Shown one piece after another: positions 11,193-58,775 of a stretch of 64,000 bases of DNA. Origin of the DNA: an uncultured Eubacteriales bacterium (GTDB lineage: Bacteria; Bacillota; Clostridia; Christensenellales; CAG-917). The position numbers and the translations under genes were made by a program. The number at the start of each line of letters is the position of its first letter. The first letter of the stretch is position 1. The notes beneath the pieces were generated by a model. The model had not been told where the DNA came from. It worked only from the letters and a program-made list of their open reading frames with translations, and made no database searches. Location: positions 7,816-71,815 of the forward strand of contig URIZ01000006.1 in NCBI GenBank assembly GCA_900548005.1, written 5' to 3'.

Positions 11193-11214
11193 GTGGTGGA
11201 GATAAGGGGATTCG
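11192..11214. repeat. tRNA-proximal copy of the 23-bp direct repeat
   Basis: Identical to 10882-10904. Overlaps the tRNA-Ala T-loop through CCA. Confidence 0.95.
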
Positions 11215-11269
11215 AACCCCTGACCTTCGCATTGCGAACGCGACGCTCTACCAACTGAGCCATATCCCC
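11194..11269 (-). tRNA. tRNA-Ala (anticodon CGC), CCA encoded
   Basis: Hand-folded cloverleaf: GGGGAUA UG GCUC AGUUGGUA GAGC G UCGCG UUCGCAA UGCGA AGGUC AGGGG UUCGAAU CCCCU UAUCUCC A CCA. G3:U70 identity pair present. 76 nt. Confidence 0.93.
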
Positions 11270-12445: not shown

Positions 12446-13555
12446 TTATTTTTGAATGGACGAAAGTTTGAGATATTCGTTGATAAACCCGTCCAAATCG
12501 CCGTCCATAACCGCCTGTACGTTGCCGGTTTCGTAGTTTGTGCGGTGATCCTTGACCATGGTGTAGGGGCAGAACACGTACGAGCGAATTTGGCTGCCCC
12601 ACTCGATTTTTTTGAGCTGACCGCTGATTTGCGCCGCCTCTTCTTCACGCTCGCGCTCACGCTTTTCGATGAGTTTTGAGCGGAGCATTTGCATTGCGAC
12701 TTCGCGGTTTTGGATCTGACTTCTTTCGTTTTGACACGCAACGATGATGCCTGTCGGGATGTGGGTTATGCGAATTGCGCTCTCTGTTTTGTTGACGTGC
12801 TGACCGCCTGCGCCCGACGAGCGATAGGTGTCCACTTTGAGATCTTCGGGGCGAATCTCGATTTCCGCCGTGTCGATGATCTCTGGCATAACTTCAAGGG
12901 ACGCAAAAGACGTATGTCTTCTTGCGTTTGCATCAAACGGCGAAATACGCACAAGTCTATGCACGCCTTTTTCCGCTTTGAGATATCCGTATGCGTTGTC
13001 GCCTTCCACCCTGAAAGTGACGGATTTTACGCCTGCCTCGTCGCCTGCGAGATAATCGAGCTCGGTGCAAGTCCAGCCCGTACGCTCGCAATAGCGCGTG
13101 TACATTCTATACAGCATGGAGCACCAGTCTTGCGCCTCCGTTCCGCCTGCGCCCGCGTGCAAAGTGAGTATTGCGTTGAGCGAATCGTATTTGCCGCTGA
13201 GCAGCGTTGCAAGCGAAAGGCTCTCCACCGCCTCGCCCAGATCGTGCACCGTCGTCAACAATTTCTCGTCTTCGGTTTCATCGCCTTCGAGCTCTATGAT
13301 ATCCACGGTGTCGATTGCATCGTCAATGCGCGCAATCATCTTCTCGAACTTGTCGATTTTGCCTTGGAGTTGACTTATCTCGCGGCTGACTTTTTTTGCG
13401 TTGTCGGTATCGTTCCAAAATCCGTCCGCATTCTGCTCTTTTTCAAGCTCTGCGATTCTTTGGCGCATTTTGTCGGGATTTATGGACTCGTAAGCGCGCA
13501 CCATTTCGGTGCGCATCTTGCTAAGTTGGTTTCTCGGTTCGTTGTAATCTAACAT
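12446..13555 (-). CDS. prfB: Peptide chain release factor 2 (single uninterrupted frame)
   Basis: 369-aa ORF with the SPF tripeptide (RISPFDANARRHTSF) and GGQ (SGAGGQHVNKTES). Confidence 0.93.
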   Translation of the reverse strand: MLDYNEPRNQLSKMRTEMVRAYESINPDKMRQRIAELEKEQNADGFWNDTDNAKKVSREISQLQGKIDKFEKMIARIDDAIDTVDIIELEGDETEDEKLLTTVHDLGEAVESLSLATLLSGKYDSLNAILTLHAGAGGTEAQDWCSMLYRMYTRYCERTGWTCTELDYLAGDEAGVKSVTFRVEGDNAYGYLKAEKGVHRLVRISPFDANARRHTSFASLEVMPEIIDTAEIEIRPEDLKVDTYRSSGAGGQHVNKTESAIRITHIPTGIIVACQNERSQIQNREVAMQMLRSKLIEKREREREEEAAQISGQLKKIEWGSQIRSYVFCPYTMVKDHRTNYETGNVQAVMDGDLDGFINEYLKLSSIQK

Positions 13556-13640: not shown

Positions 13641-16301
13641 TTATTGATTCTTTCCGCAACAATTCTTGTATTTGAGACCGCTGCCGCACGGACAAGGATC
13701 GTTTCTGCCCACTTTCTTTTGTTGAGCGACGCTCTTTTGGGCGGTTGCGATGTTTTGTCTTACTTCGGCTTTTGAGCCGTCTTCTCTCTTTTCCACGTGG
13801 ATTTTGAGAAGGATGGACGCCGTCTCTGAGTGTATTCTCGACACCATGTCTTCAAACATATCCCAGCCTTCTTGGCGGTATGCGATGACGGGATCTCTTT
13901 GTCCGTAGCCGCGAAGTCCGATGCCTCGGCGCAGTGCGTCCATGGCGTCGATATGTTCCATCCACTTGGAGTCAACGGTCTTGAGCAGCACCACTCTTTC
14001 AAGCTCTTTGAAGTCAAAGCCTTCCTTTTCGAGAGCGTCCACTTTGTCATTGTAGTCCTTGTTGGCGATCTTGAGCACCGCTTCTTTGAGCTTGTACACA
14101 TCGTAGCAAGAGCAAAGTTCGGGCGTCATAAGATTTGTGCCTTGGGGGATCATTTTCTTTTCCAGAGCAGTGTTGAACGCCTGATAATCCCACGTCTGAT
14201 AGTCCGTCTTGTAGTCGGCATAGTAGCCGATGATTTCTTCTGCAAGGTCGTCTATCATGTCCATGATTTGCTCGTGAACGTCCATGCCGTCAAGCACTTT
14301 GCCGCGCTCTTTGTAGATAAGTTCGCGCTGAGCGTTCATCACGTCGTCATAGCTCAACACTTGTTTTCTTATGGAGTAGTTTCTGCCTTCGACAAGACGT
14401 TGCGCCTTTTCGATTTGCTTTGTGATGATGCCGTTTGAGATAGGCACGTCGTCGCCGAGATTCATAGCCTCGGCAATGGTTTTCATTCTGTCACCGCCGA
14501 AAATACGCGCGATGTCGTCTTCCATTGAGATGTAGAACACCGTGCTGCCCGGATCGCCCTGACGACCGCTACGGCCACGCAACTGGTTGTCTATACGGCG
14601 GCTTTCGTGACGTTCCGTGCCGATGATTCTCAAGCCTCCCAATTCCGCCACCTTTGCTTTTTCTTCATCACAAATGGCTTTGAATGCTTCGTAGTGGTGC
14701 TTGTACACTTCCTTTGCGGCGATGATTTCGGGATCTTGGCTTGCGTGCGGAGAAGATGCAAGCTCGATGACTTCAAGCGGATAACCGTTCTTTTCCATCT
14801 TTTGCTTGGCTTGGAATTCCGCATTGCCGCCCAGCATAATATCCGTTCCGCGACCTGCCATGTTCGTTGCGATAGTCACGGCGTTGAGCCTGCCCGCTTG
14901 AGCGATGATCTCGGACTCTTGCTTGTGGAATTTTGCGTTCAACACGTTGTGAGCAATGCCCTTTCTCTTCAAAATATTGCTGAGTTCTTCGCTCTTTTCA
15001 ACGCTTATCGTGCCCACGAGAATTGGTTGTCCCGTTGCGTGATGATCGATGATATCTTGCACGATTGCGGTGATTTTGCCGCTGACTTTGGTGTAGATTT
15101 GGTCGTGTTCGTCCACTCTTCTTGACGGTCTGTTGGGCGGAATGGTGACAACGTCAAGGCGATAGATGCCTTCAAACTCGTCTTCTTCGGTCTTTGCCGT
15201 GCCCGTCATACCCGAGAGTTTCTTGTACATGCGGAAGAAGTTTTGGAAAGTGATTGTCGCAAGCGTCTTGTTTTCGCTTCTTATGGCAACGTGTTCTTTT
15301 GCTTCGATCGCCTGATGCAAGCCTTCGTTGTAGCGGCGGCCGATCATGATACGTCCCGTAAACTCGTCAACGATAAGCACTTCGCCGTCACTGACGATAT
15401 AGTCCTTGTCGCGTTTCATCATAAAGTGCGCTTTCAACGCCGCTTGAATGTGGTGATACAAGTCGGTATTTTCAAGGTCGGTGAGATTGACGACGTGGAA
15501 GAATCTTTCCGCTTTCTCAACGCCTTGGTCGGTGAGCATAATTGATTTTTCCTTTTCGTCAATGGTGAAATCGTCACCTTCTCTGCATTGGCGAGCAAAG
15601 TTGTCCGCGCTCTTGTACAGCTCGCTCGACTTGCCGCCCCTTCCCGATATAATAAGCGGAGTTCTTGCCTCGTCGATGAGAATGGAGTCCACCTCGTCGA
15701 TGATTGCAAAATTCAGCTCGCGTTGCACCTTGTCTTGCTTTCTGACCACCATATTGTCGCGAAGGAAGTCGAACCCAAGCTCGTTGTTGGTGCAATAGGT
15801 TATGTCGCTCTCATACGCCTTGCGCTTGTCTTCCGAGCTCATCCCCGGCACGACAACGCCAACCGTAAGCCCCAAAAACTTGTAGAGCTTTCCCATCCAC
15901 GCCGCGTCACGAGTGGCAAGATAGTCGTTGACGGTGACAACATGCACACCCTTGCCCGTAAGCGCGTTGAGATACGCGGGCAGTGTTGCCACAAGCGTCT
16001 TGCCCTCACCTGTGCCCATCTCGGCGATACGACCTTGATGCAAAGCGATGCCGCCGAGTATCTGCACGTGGAAGTGGCGCATACCAAGCACTCTTTCGGC
16101 AGCTTCTCTCACAAGCGCGTATGCGTCGGGGAGAATATGATCGAGATCTTCGCCGTTTGCAAGCCTGTCTTTCAGCACCGCGGTTTGCGCAACGAGAGTG
16201 TTGTCGTCCATATCCGCATAGACGGGAGCGAGAGCCTCAACCTTTGCGGCTATCTTTTCAATTTTCTTGATTTTGAATTTGTTTTCGTTAAAAAGCGACA
16301 T
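13641..16301 (-). CDS. secA: Preprotein translocase ATPase SecA
   Basis: 886-aa ORF with Walker A MGTGEGKTLVATLPAYLNAL, DEVD box (IIDEVDSILIDEARTPLIISG) and a C-terminal zinc finger CPCGSGLKYKNCCG. Confidence 0.97.
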   Translation of the reverse strand: MSLFNENKFKIKKIEKIAAKVEALAPVYADMDDNTLVAQTAVLKDRLANGEDLDHILPDAYALVREAAERVLGMRHFHVQILGGIALHQGRIAEMGTGEGKTLVATLPAYLNALTGKGVHVVTVNDYLATRDAAWMGKLYKFLGLTVGVVVPGMSSEDKRKAYESDITYCTNNELGFDFLRDNMVVRKQDKVQRELNFAIIDEVDSILIDEARTPLIISGRGGKSSELYKSADNFARQCREGDDFTIDEKEKSIMLTDQGVEKAERFFHVVNLTDLENTDLYHHIQAALKAHFMMKRDKDYIVSDGEVLIVDEFTGRIMIGRRYNEGLHQAIEAKEHVAIRSENKTLATITFQNFFRMYKKLSGMTGTAKTEEDEFEGIYRLDVVTIPPNRPSRRVDEHDQIYTKVSGKITAIVQDIIDHHATGQPILVGTISVEKSEELSNILKRKGIAHNVLNAKFHKQESEIIAQAGRLNAVTIATNMAGRGTDIMLGGNAEFQAKQKMEKNGYPLEVIELASSPHASQDPEIIAAKEVYKHHYEAFKAICDEEKAKVAELGGLRIIGTERHESRRIDNQLRGRSGRQGDPGSTVFYISMEDDIARIFGGDRMKTIAEAMNLGDDVPISNGIITKQIEKAQRLVEGRNYSIRKQVLSYDDVMNAQRELIYKERGKVLDGMDVHEQIMDMIDDLAEEIIGYYADYKTDYQTWDYQAFNTALEKKMIPQGTNLMTPELCSCYDVYKLKEAVLKIANKDYNDKVDALEKEGFDFKELERVVLLKTVDSKWMEHIDAMDALRRGIGLRGYGQRDPVIAYRQEGWDMFEDMVSRIHSETASILLKIHVEKREDGSKAEVRQNIATAQKSVAQQKKVGRNDPCPCGSGLKYKNCCGKNQ

Positions 16302-16366
16302 ATTTCACCTTTCTATATTCGCCATAAGGCGCATGCGCCTGCGCGCACGATTTTTTTCGATTTACT

Positions 16367-16395
16367 ATTATACACTATATCGGTGTATATTTCAA
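16367..16395 (-). promoter_or_regulatory. Candidate sigma-70 promoter of secA
   Basis: Minus strand reads TTGAAA, 17 nt, TATAAT, about 65 nt upstream of the secA ATG. Confidence 0.5.
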
Positions 16396-16489
16396 CAAAG
16401 TTTTCACACCCGACAAGTTTTTATAAGTTCTCGGTTCTACAAGGTTATACATGTAAAACTTAAATGCAACTTTCCCCTTTCCTCAGGTG

Positions 16490-16865
16490 TTTTCCCTATC
16501 ACCGTTCCCCCTTGCAAGGGAACCCACGGTGACCGCGTGGCGGGGGACAACACTCAGCACTCGCATAGATAGGTATCGTTCTCTTATTATGCCACCACGC
16601 TTTGTGCGCCAGGCAGTAGCCAACAACACGGCGCAGTCGCTCGTACAAATCGTTAAGCTCGGCGTTCGATACGGTCGCCGCCGTTGCGGCTCCAATTCCG
16701 TCTTCAAATAAGCACATTCCGTTTATAAGTACGCCCTGAATAAGTTTTCGTTTCGGGCGCAACCCAAAAACTTTGTCATTGCGAGCTTGCGTGGCAATCT
16801 CGTGGAAACGGAACGACAAAATTTTTCTGCGCCCGCGCCACAATTATTCATTATTAATTATTAAT
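16490..16865 (-). ncRNA. Conserved structured non-coding element, copy A (possible raiA-motif-like RNA; unverified)
   Basis: Long sequence blocks are shared with 50381-50715 on the other strand. Helices between blocks are kept by different sequences. A nested hairpin is GGGCGCA...TGCGCCC. No credible ORF. It lies directly 3' of comFC and upstream of the secA promoter. Strand is inferred from the comFC direction and one U.G pair that would be C.A on the other strand. Confidence 0.5.
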
Positions 16866-17774
16866 TTTATCCTGCTTTTTCCCTTCTTCCATAGGAATTT
16901 TCAGTGTGGTAACCGCGCTTGTAAGCACGTTCACTTCTCTTGCGCCGGCTTTGAGCAACACTTTTGCGCACTCGTTGGCGGTTGCGCCGGTCGTAAAAAT
17001 ATCGTCAATGAGAAGAAGTCTGCGGTTTTTCACTTGCTCGAACGCGCAAGAGAATGCGCCTTCGAGGTTGATTGCTCTTTCTTTGCCGTGCAATTCCTTT
17101 TGCGCCGACGTATCTTTTATCTTCACGAGTGCGGGCAGGACGGGGATATTGAGCCTTCCGCCCACTTCATAAGCGAGCAATGCCGATTGGTTGAATCCGC
17201 GCTTTTTCTCTTCCTTTTGCGTCATTGGCACAAACACGATTATGTCCGCTTGCATGCCGCTTTTCAAAAACTCGTCCGCCATAAGCGCGCCGAGCGTTTG
17301 GGCAATATACTTCTTTCGCCCGAATTTGAGCGCGTATATCATCTTCTTTGTTTCGCCTTCATAGGTGAGCGGAGAGCGGTTTTTCACAAACGCGAATTTC
17401 TCGTATTGACAACGATTGCAGTAGTCCGACTCGTCTTTGAGCGGCATGCCGCACGACAAGCACCTATGCTCGCCCACAAACGGCAGTTTTTCCACGCACT
17501 CGGAGCAAAGACGGTATCTCGTGTCCGCCACAAGCTCTTCTCCGCACACGTCGCAAGTGCAATTCATCGGATACAGTGCGTCCTTGAACGCCGCAAGACA
17601 CTTTTTCAAAAACTCACTCGCCTTTTTCTTGCGGGCAAGACGTTTTTGTTTGCGTATTCCCTTTTTGTCTTCCGATTGTTCGATTGTTGGGGCGCATTCT
17701 TTGTTGTCTTTGTCGTCAAACAAGCCTTTTTGCTCGTCATCTGGCGCAAAATTCTTGTCACCACTCATACGCAC
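16854..17774 (-). CDS. comFC: ComF-family protein (phosphoribosyltransferase domain, zinc-ribbon N-terminal part)
   Basis: 306-aa ORF with CDVCGEEL...CSECV...CLSCG..CNRC cysteine pairs and the PRTase motif RRLLLIDDIFTTGATANE. It has a ~70-aa K/D/E-rich N-terminal extension. Confidence 0.85.
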   Translation of the reverse strand: MRMSGDKNFAPDDEQKGLFDDKDNKECAPTIEQSEDKKGIRKQKRLARKKKASEFLKKCLAAFKDALYPMNCTCDVCGEELVADTRYRLCSECVEKLPFVGEHRCLSCGMPLKDESDYCNRCQYEKFAFVKNRSPLTYEGETKKMIYALKFGRKKYIAQTLGALMADEFLKSGMQADIIVFVPMTQKEEKKRGFNQSALLAYEVGGRLNIPVLPALVKIKDTSAQKELHGKERAINLEGAFSCAFEQVKNRRLLLIDDIFTTGATANECAKVLLKAGAREVNVLTSAVTTLKIPMEEGKKQDKINN

Positions 17775-50116: not shown

Positions 50117-50380
50117 ACTTCCATTCCGTCGAAAATTTATTTCGCATTGTGCAAATACTTATTAATACAAAAAGCTGACATAATGCATTTATTAGGACAC
50201 TATCTTAACACGCCAAGTCACTTTCGTCAAACGATTTGCCTTTGCCGTCCCGTTTTTATACTTTTATTACAACCCGTCCGACATCGCGCCCGCGCATAAT
50301 GCGCACACGTATATACACGTGTACGCATTTAAAAGGAATGTGCAATTTCAAAGACGAACACGAGCCACAACGGCATAATA

Positions 50381-50715
50381 ATTAATAATTAATAATGAAT
50401 AATTGTGGAAGGCGAAGCCTTATCCAAAAGCCTATTCGGAGCGTACTTATACACGGAATGTGCTTATTCGAAGTGAGCGTTCGCAAGGCGAACGCCGAGA
50501 TAAGCGCCGAGCAAGACGGTTGTACGAGAATGCGTGGCACTGTGTTGCGCAAGCCGCCACGCAGGCGAAGTGGCATAACAAGGGGACGATACTTTTCTAT
50601 GCGAGTGCCGACTGTCTTCCCCGTGAGCGATGTACACTTTTGTAGAGAAAGCACTCTATACGAGTGGTGGAAGAAATACCGGCGCGGACCGGAAAGATGG
50701 GGCAATTCTATTTAG
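50381..50715 (+). ncRNA. Conserved structured non-coding element, copy B (paralog of 16490-16865)
   Basis: It shares the 28/28 block ATTAATAATTAATAATGAATAATTGTGG, the 31/33 block GCGTACTTATACACGGAATGTGCTTATTCGAAG, and CGAACGCCGAG, TTGTACGAG and the GTGGCATAA...TCTATGCGAGTGC...TCCCC block with copy A. Hairpins AAGGC-GAA-GCCTT, GCGTTCG-CAAGG-CGAACGC, TGCGTGGC/GCCACGCA and TCTTCC/GGAAGA are present. Confidence 0.5.
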
Positions 50716-50816
50716 GGTTTCAAACGTTCACCCCTTGTAGAGCCGTGAACAATATGCGCCTTACGGCTGGATGTTTCGACAGGCTCAACATGACGATATG
50801 GAAAATTTGATACAGC

Positions 50817-50866
50817 ACCCGAGCATGCGTAGCGGAGCGTACACGTAGTACGTGAGCAACACACGC
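50817..50866 (+). repeat. 50-bp perfect direct repeat, copy 1 (GTAC-hairpin module)
   Basis: ACCCGAGCATGCGTAGCGGAGCGTACACGTAGTACGTGAGCAACACACGC, identical to 51175-51224. Confidence 0.95.
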
Positions 50867-50870
50867 ACAG

Positions 50871-51035
50871 CCGGAACAAAAGCCGTCATCGCGGCAACGG
50901 CATCGCTTGCTTACAAGCAACGCCGAAAGCCGTATTAGGCTTGTTGTTCTGCTAACCGCGCCGAAAATCTTTGCTATCAGTTTAGTTACGGACAAAAACT
51001 TCTGCCGCAATTTCGCAAGATTGTCGGCTTGGTGT
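50871..51035 (+). repeat. 165-nt repeat module, copy 1
   Basis: It aligns by eye end-to-end with the reverse complement of 58391-58551. Differences are scattered substitutions and one 3-nt indel. Confidence 0.9.
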
Positions 51036-51174
51036 TTAGATTGGGTGGGACACCCACAAATGCGTCCCTTGCCGAAAAGCAAACGGCAAGAGCCAAGGAA
51101 GACGAGAACGAGTAGCGGAATGTACTTTGTACCAAGAGATAATCAGACACAGAGCAAGCGGCGAAAGTCAAGGA

Positions 51175-51224
51175 ACCCGAGCATGCGTAGCGGAGCGTAC
51201 ACGTAGTACGTGAGCAACACACGC
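51175..51224 (+). repeat. 50-bp perfect direct repeat, copy 2
   Basis: Identical to 50817-50866. The two copies start 358 bp apart. Confidence 0.95.
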
Positions 51225-51238
51225 GCAGGGTGACGAAG

Positions 51239-51269
51239 AAAAAAGCACGGCAAGAAATTGCCGTGCTTT
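51239..51269. terminator. Terminator after rpsI (hairpin usable in both directions)
   Basis: AGCACGGCAA-GAAA-TTGCCGTGCT. It is flanked by A6 on one side and TTTGTTTT on the other. Confidence 0.7.
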
Positions 51270-51294
51270 GTTTTCGTCGCTTGAATGCGTCTGA

Positions 51295-58063: not shown

Positions 58064-58390
58064 CGCCGCAAAATTTGTATCTTAAACCACAAACCCGACA
58101 TAAGTAAACATTGTCGAAACATTCGGGTGTGGGTGTCCCACCCTATCTGTCATGTTGTCAATACAAAGCGGAGCAACTTGCTTGCAAGGGTTGCGTAGCG
58201 TATGTATTCACGTAGCAACGCCTTTGAAAAAGGCGAAACCGCAGGTTTCTATGCGCAAGCATAGCAGTTGCGAGTAGCCTGCCGAAACATCCAGCCGTAA
58301 GGCGCATATCTTGCTTTTTCTTTTCGCTACGCTAGATTCTTCGATTCTCTCAGAATGACAAGGAAAAATTTAGAATTTCACCGCTTAAAA

Positions 58391-58551
58391 ATACCAAGCC
58401 GACAATCTCGCGAAATTGAGGCAGGAGTTTTTGTCCGTGTCTGAACTGTCAAAGATTTTCGGCGCGGTTAGCAGAACAACAAGCCTAATGCGGCTCTCGG
58501 CGTTGCTTGCAAGCAAGCTATGCCGTTGCCGCAATGACGGCTTTTGTTCGG
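58391..58551 (-). repeat. 165-nt repeat module, copy 2 (inverted relative to 50871-51035)
   Basis: Its reverse complement aligns with 50871-51035. Confidence 0.9.
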
Positions 58552-58560
58552 AACAAGAAA

Positions 58561-58621
58561 GGCACGGCTTGAAACAAAACCCAACGTACATTTAGTACGT
58601 GATTTTGGAGCAAGCCGTGCC
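58561..58621. repeat. GTAC-hairpin module H-b
   Basis: 11-bp closing stem GGCACGGCTTG/CAAGCCGTGCC. Apical ACGTAC-ATTTA-GTACGT. It is preceded on the plus strand by GAACAAGAAA. Confidence 0.8.
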
Positions 58622-58682
58622 TGACAAAGTTATTCGCAGTTTGGTGTATAAACGAGCGCGATATTTAGATGAAGAACAAGAA

Positions 58683-58745
58683 AGAGCCACGCTAACGGCA
58701 ACCCTAATGTACACATAGTACATGAGTTGACGGGAGCGTGGCTCT
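58683..58745. repeat. GTAC-hairpin module H-a
   Basis: 11-bp closing stem AGAGCCACGCT/AGCGTGGCTCT. Apical ATGTAC-ACATA-GTACAT. It is preceded on the plus strand by GAACAAGAAA. Confidence 0.8.
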
Positions 58746-58775
58746 GCCGCAGTCATTCGCTAAATAGCGCGCTCG

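Follow-up and report, generated by a model that had tools for sequence, protein, structure and literature searches.

A 64,000-nt stretch of contig URIZ01000006.1 from an uncultured Eubacteriales bacterium (the window) carries a minus-strand gene run of prfB, secA, a ComF-family gene (comFC, with the Pfam domains DZR_2 and Pribosyltran) and recD2. The 552-bp gap between comFC and secA holds, on the minus strand, one copy (copy A) of an element without an open reading frame (ORF), and the same element is found on the plus strand at 50380-50750 (copy B). The two copies belong to a high-copy, ORF-less, interspersed, strain-variable and modular family, whose members share a large predicted fold that is supported by covariation. 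The comFC-secA copy is derived, an insertion that is polymorphic between strains; it replaced 14 bp, rewrote the last comFC codons and spared the secA promoter. The element is read here, with somewhat better than even confidence, as a structured-RNA repeat that is non-autonomous and recombines, and that probably serves as a platform for some factor whose gene lies elsewhere. A sequence-only reading of the window had seen the gap as filled by a conserved RNA, possibly the raiA motif; membership in the raiA family is refuted.

Pairwise comparison of copies A and B confirmed the blocks that had been described and gave three shared stretches: an exact 29-nt inverted repeat that spans the comFC stop (16838-16866 / 50380-50408), 47 nt with 87% identity (16702-16748 / 50427-50473), and 58 nt with 81% identity (16543-16600 / 50565-50622). 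The homology over 16490-16865, the extent first given for the element, was upheld, but the unit is longer (16398-16868), and the tail CCTTGTAGA(A/G)CCG(A/T)GAAC of copy A is also present in copy B. Two further observations of the sequence-only reading were seen again in the alignment. A long nested hairpin of about 70 nt in copy A occupies the position of AAGGC-GAA-GCCTT in copy B, and TGCGCC/GGCGCA in copy A corresponds to GCGTGGC/GCCACGC in copy B. When the covariance model R1, built from 51 seed sequences, was run on the window, only the two copies matched, together with one 5' fragment (Table 1); the next-best match had E = 0.33.

The two-block DNA pattern was searched in a species-representative genome collection, and 24 genome loci were found. 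In the metagenome-assembled genome Clostridia bacterium HGM11462, 10 contigs together hold at least 11 copies, and a second such genome holds 5. A core-pattern scan of metagenomes gave at least 119 stretches, mostly from the human gut, with 92 full copies, 81 of which share less than 94% identity with each other. R1 gave 148 matches in 0.92 Mb of loci (mostly human-gut contigs), tandem and truncated units among them. The carriers are uncultured gut Clostridia (Clostridia bacterium HGM11462, Christensenella sp. UBA7571/UBA7588 and Firmicutes bacterium CAG:238). Three element contigs (L002, L009, L022) are binned under unrelated taxa (Butyrivibrio crossotus, Phascolarctobacterium succinatutens), for which mis-binning may be one explanation. 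Copy B was compared by blastn in "distant" mode with collections of phage (2.3 Gb) and plasmid (7.3 Gb) records, neither of which gave a match. A scan of viral contigs with the 16-mer ACGGAATGTGCTTATT gave 10 matches, which were rejected as chance because none had a second block. An orthologous hydrogenase-operon site holds a copy in three lineages, where the adjacent gene is 84% identical and the copies are 73-82% identical mutually. This indicates that the family is not merely a recent burst and that the fold was maintained through divergence.

The unit is about 330-470 nt long. An AT-rich heptad head, which is optional, comes first and is followed by a variable hairpin, the 5'/central domain, a 3' domain and a conserved CYUUGUAGAG tail. 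The number of heptads differs between strains and between copies, and the head is present in only about 28 of about 180 upstream contexts examined; the other classes are the F2 repeat, GATATC-hairpin arrays, a tandem unit and others. The 5' hairpin position also differs by copy (AAGGCGAAGCCTT, GGGTGGGACACCCAC or CCAAACTTTGTTTGG, for example). The 3' domain is interchangeable: T1, T2 and one or more further types were distinguished, and every type has a separate set of compensated helices. T1 is represented by 25 non-redundant domains at other loci, in two covarying subtypes, and T2 by 22 non-redundant domains, with compensatory exchange of TCTCCC/GGGAGA for TCTTCC/GGAAGA and of CCGG/CCGG for CCC/GGG. 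A second 5' subdomain type, a long hairpin CCCACACGCCAAAAAC...GTTTTTGACGTGCGGG followed by AGCCCTTGTGTGTG, replaces the usual 5' subdomain at L056, L065, L070, L088, L090, L097, L105, L108, L109, L112, L135, L142 and L149; these variants are often arrayed as partial units, such as the four R1 matches in 870 nt of L142. Domains are swapped between copies. Units are found single, tandem, truncated or nested, and other repeat modules often precede them.

The earlier argument that the conservation is not protein-coding held. The shared blocks keep to a single frame in copy A and are spread over two in copy B, gaps of 1 and 2 nt between the copies disrupt any common frame, and 10 ORFs across copies on both strands had no Pfam match. 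A protein-coding gene was therefore rejected on the absence of a Pfam family, the frame that is not kept and the helices that covary. A small peptide (UUG ... UAG in the T1 tail) was rejected as well, as the frame is lost in L004 and T2 copies have no start codon. An apparent divergent "gene" (MKAQFLACGKKEH...) by 13 variant copies is a non-coding module, with ORFs of at most 62 aa, mostly 24-25 aa.

No recurrent neighbour protein was found in the 24 genome loci or within 3 kb among the at least 119 metagenome loci. A Pfam comparison of nine proteins, drawn from the largest neighbour clusters, showed housekeeping proteins throughout (ABC transporters, hydrogenase operon, histidine kinase, P-type ATPase, amylase). 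Orientation was counted for the 75 copies that have a called gene on either side. Seventy of them lie 3' of at least one gene and only 5 in divergent gaps; the upstream gene is co-oriented in 51 and the downstream gene in 37. A riboswitch or 5' leader was rejected on this last count, on the unrelated functions of the neighbours and on copy B, which points at the 3' end of rpsI. Orientation relative to replication was gauged in a small sample, with gene direction as the proxy for replication direction: co-directional gaps hold 32 sense and 19 antisense copies. Copies A and B are oppositely oriented within a window of one-signed GC skew. A terminator scan 3' of 120 copies performed no better in the sense than in the antisense control. 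A promoter in the AT-rich head is not claimed, with 9/12 matches in some copies and none in copy A.

The whole window was searched with cmscan against Rfam 15 at gathering thresholds, and relaxed filters were applied to copies A and B (E<=10) and to the tandem copies of L007 (E<=1). No match to raiA, ROOL, GOLLD, OLE, 6S, HEARO, T-box or intron models was found, gathering or relaxed; the first five are the models against which the sequence-only reading had proposed a check. The relaxed searches of the copies and of neighbouring repeat modules gave chance-level microRNA (miRNA) and small nucleolar RNA matches only. The family thus has no match in Rfam 15, and no description of it was found in the literature searched.

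Filled and empty alleles

The gap between comFC and secA is 552 or 606 bp in filled alleles (L035, L036) and 100 bp in empty conspecific alleles (L040-L043). In the empty alleles of relatives whose ComF is 87%, 75% or 72% identical (L037-L039), it is 101-104 bp and holds no hpf. The sequence-only reading had named homologous gaps without the blocks as evidence that would count against a conserved element filling the gap. Such gaps, about 100 bp long, were found in conspecifics and relatives alike, and that description therefore falls. In this lineage the gap was ancestrally about 100 bp, without raiA RNA or hpf, and the insertion is recent.

When the window was compared with the empty allele of L040, the flanks were 97.5-97.7% identical, and 471 nt (16398-16868) stood in place of 14 nt (AGTTTCAGCCAACT). 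The junctions at this site (site A) are GAAGGGAAAAAG|CAGGATAAAATTAATAATT and GTCGGGTGTGA|AAACTTTGTTGAAA. No target duplication was found at the junctions of site A or of site B, where copy B lies. A MITE (a miniature transposable element with inverted repeats) was rejected, since neither copy has an inverted repeat that links its two ends, and the junctions have no duplication. Insertion is by replacement, without terminal inverted repeats or target duplication, and located mostly at gene 3' ends.

The insertion turned the ComF C-terminus ...EEGKRVSAN into ...EEGKKQDKINN; the head of copy A provides the new comFC stop (16854-16856) and the final ...KQDKINN. Two classes of ComF C-terminus are found. 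The proteins of filled alleles (P0001, P0002; 98-100% identical) have the longer ending, and those of empty alleles (P0003, P0004, P0006, P0007, P0008) have the shorter one. The identity to the window ComF is 97-98% for P0003 and P0004 and 87% for P0007. Both alleles are common in public assemblies: in one ComF cluster, 92 contigs encode the 304-aa filled form and 20 the 302-aa empty form. The comFC start called in these assemblies lies two codons 3' of the first GTG, which gives 304 aa rather than 306 aa; no record was found of the exact ComFC ORF counted from the first GTG. Two filled alleles with identical ComF (P0001) differ by one AATAATG heptad (7 nt more in L036) and by a 47-nt optional hairpin. 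This hairpin of about 47-50 nt (TAAGGAACGAAGTGACGGAATAGCGATTGCTACGAAGTCAATCGCGTCG; L036:5220-5270) lies between the central and 3' domains, and is also present in L002, L003, L070, L096, L112 and L160. The secA promoter that had been located upstream of secA was found again. It lies just beyond the insertion edge, outside the element, and is kept in the empty-site alleles (L037, L040-L043).

Copy B faces the rpsI 3' end and is missing in six of the eight contigs with identical RpsI, where about 745 nt of the window replace about 46 nt. The gap between rpsI and a helix-turn-helix gene (window 50117-51294) is hypervariable at identical RpsI, from 398 to 1271 bp across the eight contigs. The strains differ in their combination of the focal element, F2 and a 54-nt repeat, and L164 has another element variant there. 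The left end of the variable segment is marked by a near-perfect AT/GC palindrome, GCGCATAATGCGCACACGTATATACACGTGTACGCAT, which attracts spurious Rfam miRNA matches; the empty-site alleles diverge from that point on.

Predicted fold and covariation

The near-invariant unpaired stretches of the element are CTTAT..ACGGAATGTGC, GCCGAGCTT, GTGGCATAA and TCTATGCGAGTGC, and copy-specific helices lie between them. The central stem Hc was found in at least eight fully complementary sequence versions. These are UGCGCC/GGCGCA (copy A), GCGUGGC/GCCACGC (copy B), GCGGACGA/UCGUCCGC, GCAAGUGC/GCACUUGC, GCAAACGA/UCGUUUGC, GCAGACGA/UCGUCUGC, CCAACGA/UCGUUGG and ACGGGCGA/UCGCCCGU.

Pairing was counted for 31 pairs in a model-based alignment of 146 distinct sequences, with shuffles and slid partners as controls. 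A standard pair was formed in 86.9% of the cells; the shuffles gave 76.0% and the slid partners 14-50%. Both sides had changed in 27 of the 31 pairs (18.7 in shuffles) and in 378 cells (92 in shuffles), counts that relatedness and module swapping inflate. None of the 500 shuffles equalled the observed values. This bears out the earlier claim that the helices are preserved by compensatory change. The inner part of Hc was 98.3% paired, with up to four pair types per column, Ha was 97.5% paired, with tandem G.A motifs on its flanks, and Pd was 96.6% paired. The sense strand was chosen from the Ha tandem G.A motif, a GNRA-like GCAA loop and the excess of G.U over A.C in the weaker helices, which together suggest that the strand read here is the transcribed one.

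RNAalifold on MAFFT alignments gave unstable long-range helices. MAFFT shifts the Hc variants two columns out of register, and the model-based realignment was therefore used; the MAFFT seed alignment, which is not structure-fitted, gives a matching covariation picture. A long-range helix P1 (GUACUU/GAGUGC) was dropped, with U-U at one position in one third of the copies and an invariant 3' strand.

Readings of the element

A non-autonomous, recombining structured-RNA repeat would work as follows. The sense transcript, supplied by read-through from the upstream gene or by a putative promoter inside the unit, would fold into a multi-helix RNA, and its invariant single-stranded cores would probably provide a factor that is encoded elsewhere with its binding or active site. 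Selection would act on the fold in every copy, either as a need of the element's own propagation or retention (an "RNA-first" mobile element) or through a shared host function. Spread and reshuffling would proceed via recombination or gene conversion between copies and via replacement-type insertion at gene 3' ends; cut-and-paste with target duplication would not be the route.

Several points weigh against this reading. No trans-acting partner was identified among the neighbours of the copies, which were what was scanned. In co-directional gaps, 32 copies are sense and 19 of 51 antisense to their neighbours, so read-through transcription cannot serve all copies. No convincing promoter is conserved across copies, and the number of heptads varies, so that promoter spacing would vary with it. 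Two helices are weak as drawn: P2 is 79% paired, and the outer part of Hc 53% in the chosen register. The covariation counts are inflated, as stated above, and the alignment (A7) was fitted to the model. G.U exceeds A.C (187:61) only in the weaker helices, and the best-supported helices are purely Watson-Crick and therefore cannot discriminate the strand. The single-sequence folding energy is unremarkable (z = -1.2 sense, -1.5 antisense). That RNA rather than single-stranded DNA is the functional form is a step that we infer.

The near-invariant unpaired cores and compensated helices resemble those of functional RNAs, and a host non-coding RNA gene family would explain them. Each copy would then be its own transcription unit for a trans-acting structured RNA (a regulator, a sponge or a ribonucleoprotein component), multiplied by duplication and with the AT-rich head as promoter. 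TTAATA-17-AATAAT-like matches at a roughly fixed distance to the core are found in many AT heads, terminator hairpins follow some copies (L014, L017, L020), and one orthologous locus has kept its copy in three lineages. However, tens of copies per genome, with presence or absence between near-identical strains, would be unusual for such a gene. The proposed promoter meets with the scarcity of the AT head, its varying heptads and the lack of a scoring promoter in copy A, and the terminators meet with a scan in which sense did no better than antisense. Truncated, nested and domain-swapped copies are also common, and the host-gene reading is considered unlikely. The preference for gene 3' ends, the avoidance of divergent promoter gaps, the constant order of the hairpin modules F3/F4, F2 and the element, and the mosaic make-up would fit a REP/BIME/BOX-like intergenic element. 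Such an element would work either on the DNA or at the 3' ends of mRNAs, as an mRNA stabiliser, a terminator or insulator, or a protein-binding site, and its fold would be incidental to a hairpin mosaic. Mosaic intergenic repeats of this sort are REP/BIME of E. coli, BOX/RUP of pneumococcus, ERIC, and bcr1-bcr18 of the Bacillus cereus group; ERIC and certain bcr repeats have RNA-level structure with compensatory changes. The present element shares their high copy number, intergenic location, clustering at gene 3' ends, mosaic with other modules, and presence or absence between strains. In contrast, its unit is not the short (20-40 nt) imperfect palindrome of the REP/BIME type, but ten times the REP length. 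At 330-470 nt, it has at least seven helices, long unpaired cores that are invariant and not palindromic, and a candidate long-range helix P2, paired in 79% of cells; it swaps entire domains and lacks palindromic symmetry and terminal inverted repeats. The strand of copy A has no terminator-like hairpin, and the copies show only a slight bias in direction with respect to the flanking genes (32:19). We regard this explanation as rather improbable.

HEARO RNAs are multi-copy, mobile and structured, and the element is like HEARO, omega-RNA and PATE units in several respects: it is multi-copy, mobile, elaborately structured and non-coding, a few hundred nt in length, and without terminal inverted repeats or target duplication, and ORF-less members would need proteins supplied in trans. 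It could be imagined as a protein-less IS200/IS605-type element (PATE) with an omega-RNA, or as another RNA-guided mobile element, mobilised as single-stranded DNA by TnpA or retained by TnpB/IscB encoded elsewhere. The hairpins near both ends and the elaborate fold would suit such an element, and PATEs carrying omega-RNAs used in trans have been described (doi 10.1101/2023.03.14.532601). On the other side, there is no HEARO or other Rfam match, and no recurrent IscB, TnpB or TnpA was found within 3 kb among the at least 119 loci, of which nine neighbour proteins were Pfam-scanned. The empty sites are not scarless, with 14 nt and about 46 nt replaced, and the left junctions have no conserved target motif. 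The element differs further in having no recognisable target-adjacent motif, no clear guide-like variable segment by the scaffold and, in the small sample counted, an apparently weak strand bias; copies A and B are opposed within one-signed GC skew. This reading is highly improbable. As for raiA, the position that the sequence-only reading gave for the motif, near comFC and upstream of raiA, agrees with the published figures, by which its genes lie downstream of comFC in 74% and upstream of raiA in 66% (PMC10861870). Copy A sits immediately 3' of comFC, in this classic position, and the element is comparable in size and complexity to this large, intricate Bacillota RNA with its many invariant nucleotides, for which helices P1-P8, two pseudoknots and 51 conserved nucleotides have been described (PMC10861870). 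The helices P2, Ha, Hc, Pd and T1/T2 of the element were derived independently of that consensus. However, raiA is a single syntenic gene, whereas the element is a strain-variable insertion in tens of copies per genome, most of them far from comFC and none of the window copies near hpf or raiA. The same gap is empty in conspecifics and relatives, and the raiA model gave no match in any of the relaxed searches. The element adjoins dozens of unrelated genes, and its position 3' of comFC therefore appears coincidental. Even a divergent raiA-motif RNA has next to no probability left, and a false lead is removed.

The kind to which a non-autonomous structured-RNA repeat belongs is known already, as interspersed structured intergenic repeats and ORF-less mobile RNAs. 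The family differs from REP, BOX and MITE repeats in its size, invariant unpaired cores and whole-domain swapping. It combines marks of functional RNA (invariant unpaired cores, compensated helices, tandem G.A) with the behaviour of a selfish repeat (copy number, polymorphism, truncation, swapping). A bolder proposal, held only tentatively and thought unlikely, is a new class of large RNA with a complex fold, with the RNA as the unit under selection, which would propagate in uncultured gut Clostridia in tens of copies per genome and exchange whole domains. It would be an ORF-less element with a catalytic transcript, or with a transcript that is the scaffold or guide of a trans-encoded enzyme. 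Were the fold needed for propagation, this would be a rare instance in bacteria of selection acting on the RNA of an element without an ORF; were it of use to the host, abundant Clostridia of the human gut would possess a large RNA in many copies. Either way, these repeats make intergenic regions hypervariable and can rewrite gene ends, as at the ComFC C-terminus.

Window features and associated repeats

The positions of the features are collected in Table 1.

Table 1 Positions of the element copies, neighbouring genes and repeat modules in the window.
Feature	Position	Strand	Basis or remark
Copy A, entire inserted segment, 471 nt	16398..16868	-	missing from conspecific empty-site alleles
Copy A AT-rich head, heptads (T/G)AATAAT then TGTGG	16838..16866	-	29-nt exact match to copy B
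Copy A variable 5' hairpin, GGCGCGGGCGCAG ... GGGTTGCGCCC, nested helices	16755..16836	-	read from sequence
Copy A 5'/central domain, cores CTTATAAACGGAATGTGC, GCCGAGCTT, GTGGCATAA, TCTATGCGAGTGC and predicted helices P2, Ha, Hc, Pd	16555..16735	-	R1 match, 195.8 bits, E = 3.7e-52
Copy A 3' domain, type T1, GTGTTGTCCCCC ... GGGTTCCCTTGCAAGGGGGAAC ... GGGAAAACAC ... GAGGAAAGGGG	16460..16554	-	aligned to T1 domains elsewhere
Copy A conserved tail AGTTTTACATGTATAACCTTGTAGAACCGAGAAC	16427..16459	-	CYTTGTAGAG..GAAC common to copy B and most copies
secA promoter TTGAAA-17-TATAAT	16395->16367	-	11/12 consensus match; outside element
Copy B AT-rich head and short 5' hairpin AAGGCGAAGCCTT	50380..50420	+	sequence, alignment with copy A
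Copy B 5'/central domain	50440..50610	+	R1 match, 146.3 bits, E = 1.2e-38
Copy B 3' domain, type T2, TCTTCCCCGTGAGCG ... TTGTAGAG ... GAGTGGTGGAAGA ... CCGGCGCGGACCGG ... GATGGGG	50611..50714	+	
Copy B conserved tail AGGGTTTCAAACGTTCACCCCTTGTAGAGCCGTGAAC	50715..50749	+	
Third unit, 5' fragment ..AAGGAATGTGCAATTTCAAAGACGAACACGAGCCACAACGGC, cut by copy B head	50326..50385	+	R1 positions 7-69, 15.5 bits, E = 0.007
prfB	12446..13555	-	
secA	13641..16301	-	
ComF-family gene (comFC)	16854..17774	-	
tRNA	11197..11269	-	Rfam, 72.5 bits
Palindrome GCGCATAATGCGCACACGTATATACACGTGTACGCAT	50290..50343		left edge of variable segment
54-nt direct repeat	50817..50870 and 51175..51228		98% identical
F2 repeat, about 165 nt	50874..51040	+	88-95% identity between the two F2 copies
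F2 repeat, about 165 nt	58389..58549	-	
F3	58655..58775	-	long hairpin
F4	58550..58640	-	long hairpin

The tRNA is the sole Rfam family in the window at the gathering threshold. In many loci a fixed order and orientation is found 5' of the element, in which the terminator-like hairpins F3/F4 are followed by F2 and then by the element. F2 has no Rfam match; in L004, L005, L007, L010, L014, L015 and L023 it immediately precedes the focal element on the 5' side. F3 and F4 contain an inner ACGTAC..GTACGT hairpin, and they look like terminators because TTCTTGTTC(TTCATC) follows the hairpins. They recur in many related loci, usually 5' of F2 or of the focal element, and the window gap 58064-58775 is a patchwork of repeat modules. 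The two copies of the 54-nt direct repeat flank the F2 module next to copy B. The syntenic locus L016 has a single copy of this repeat, and the intervening 304 nt are missing; this difference is consistent with insertion or deletion via recombination between the 54-nt repeats.

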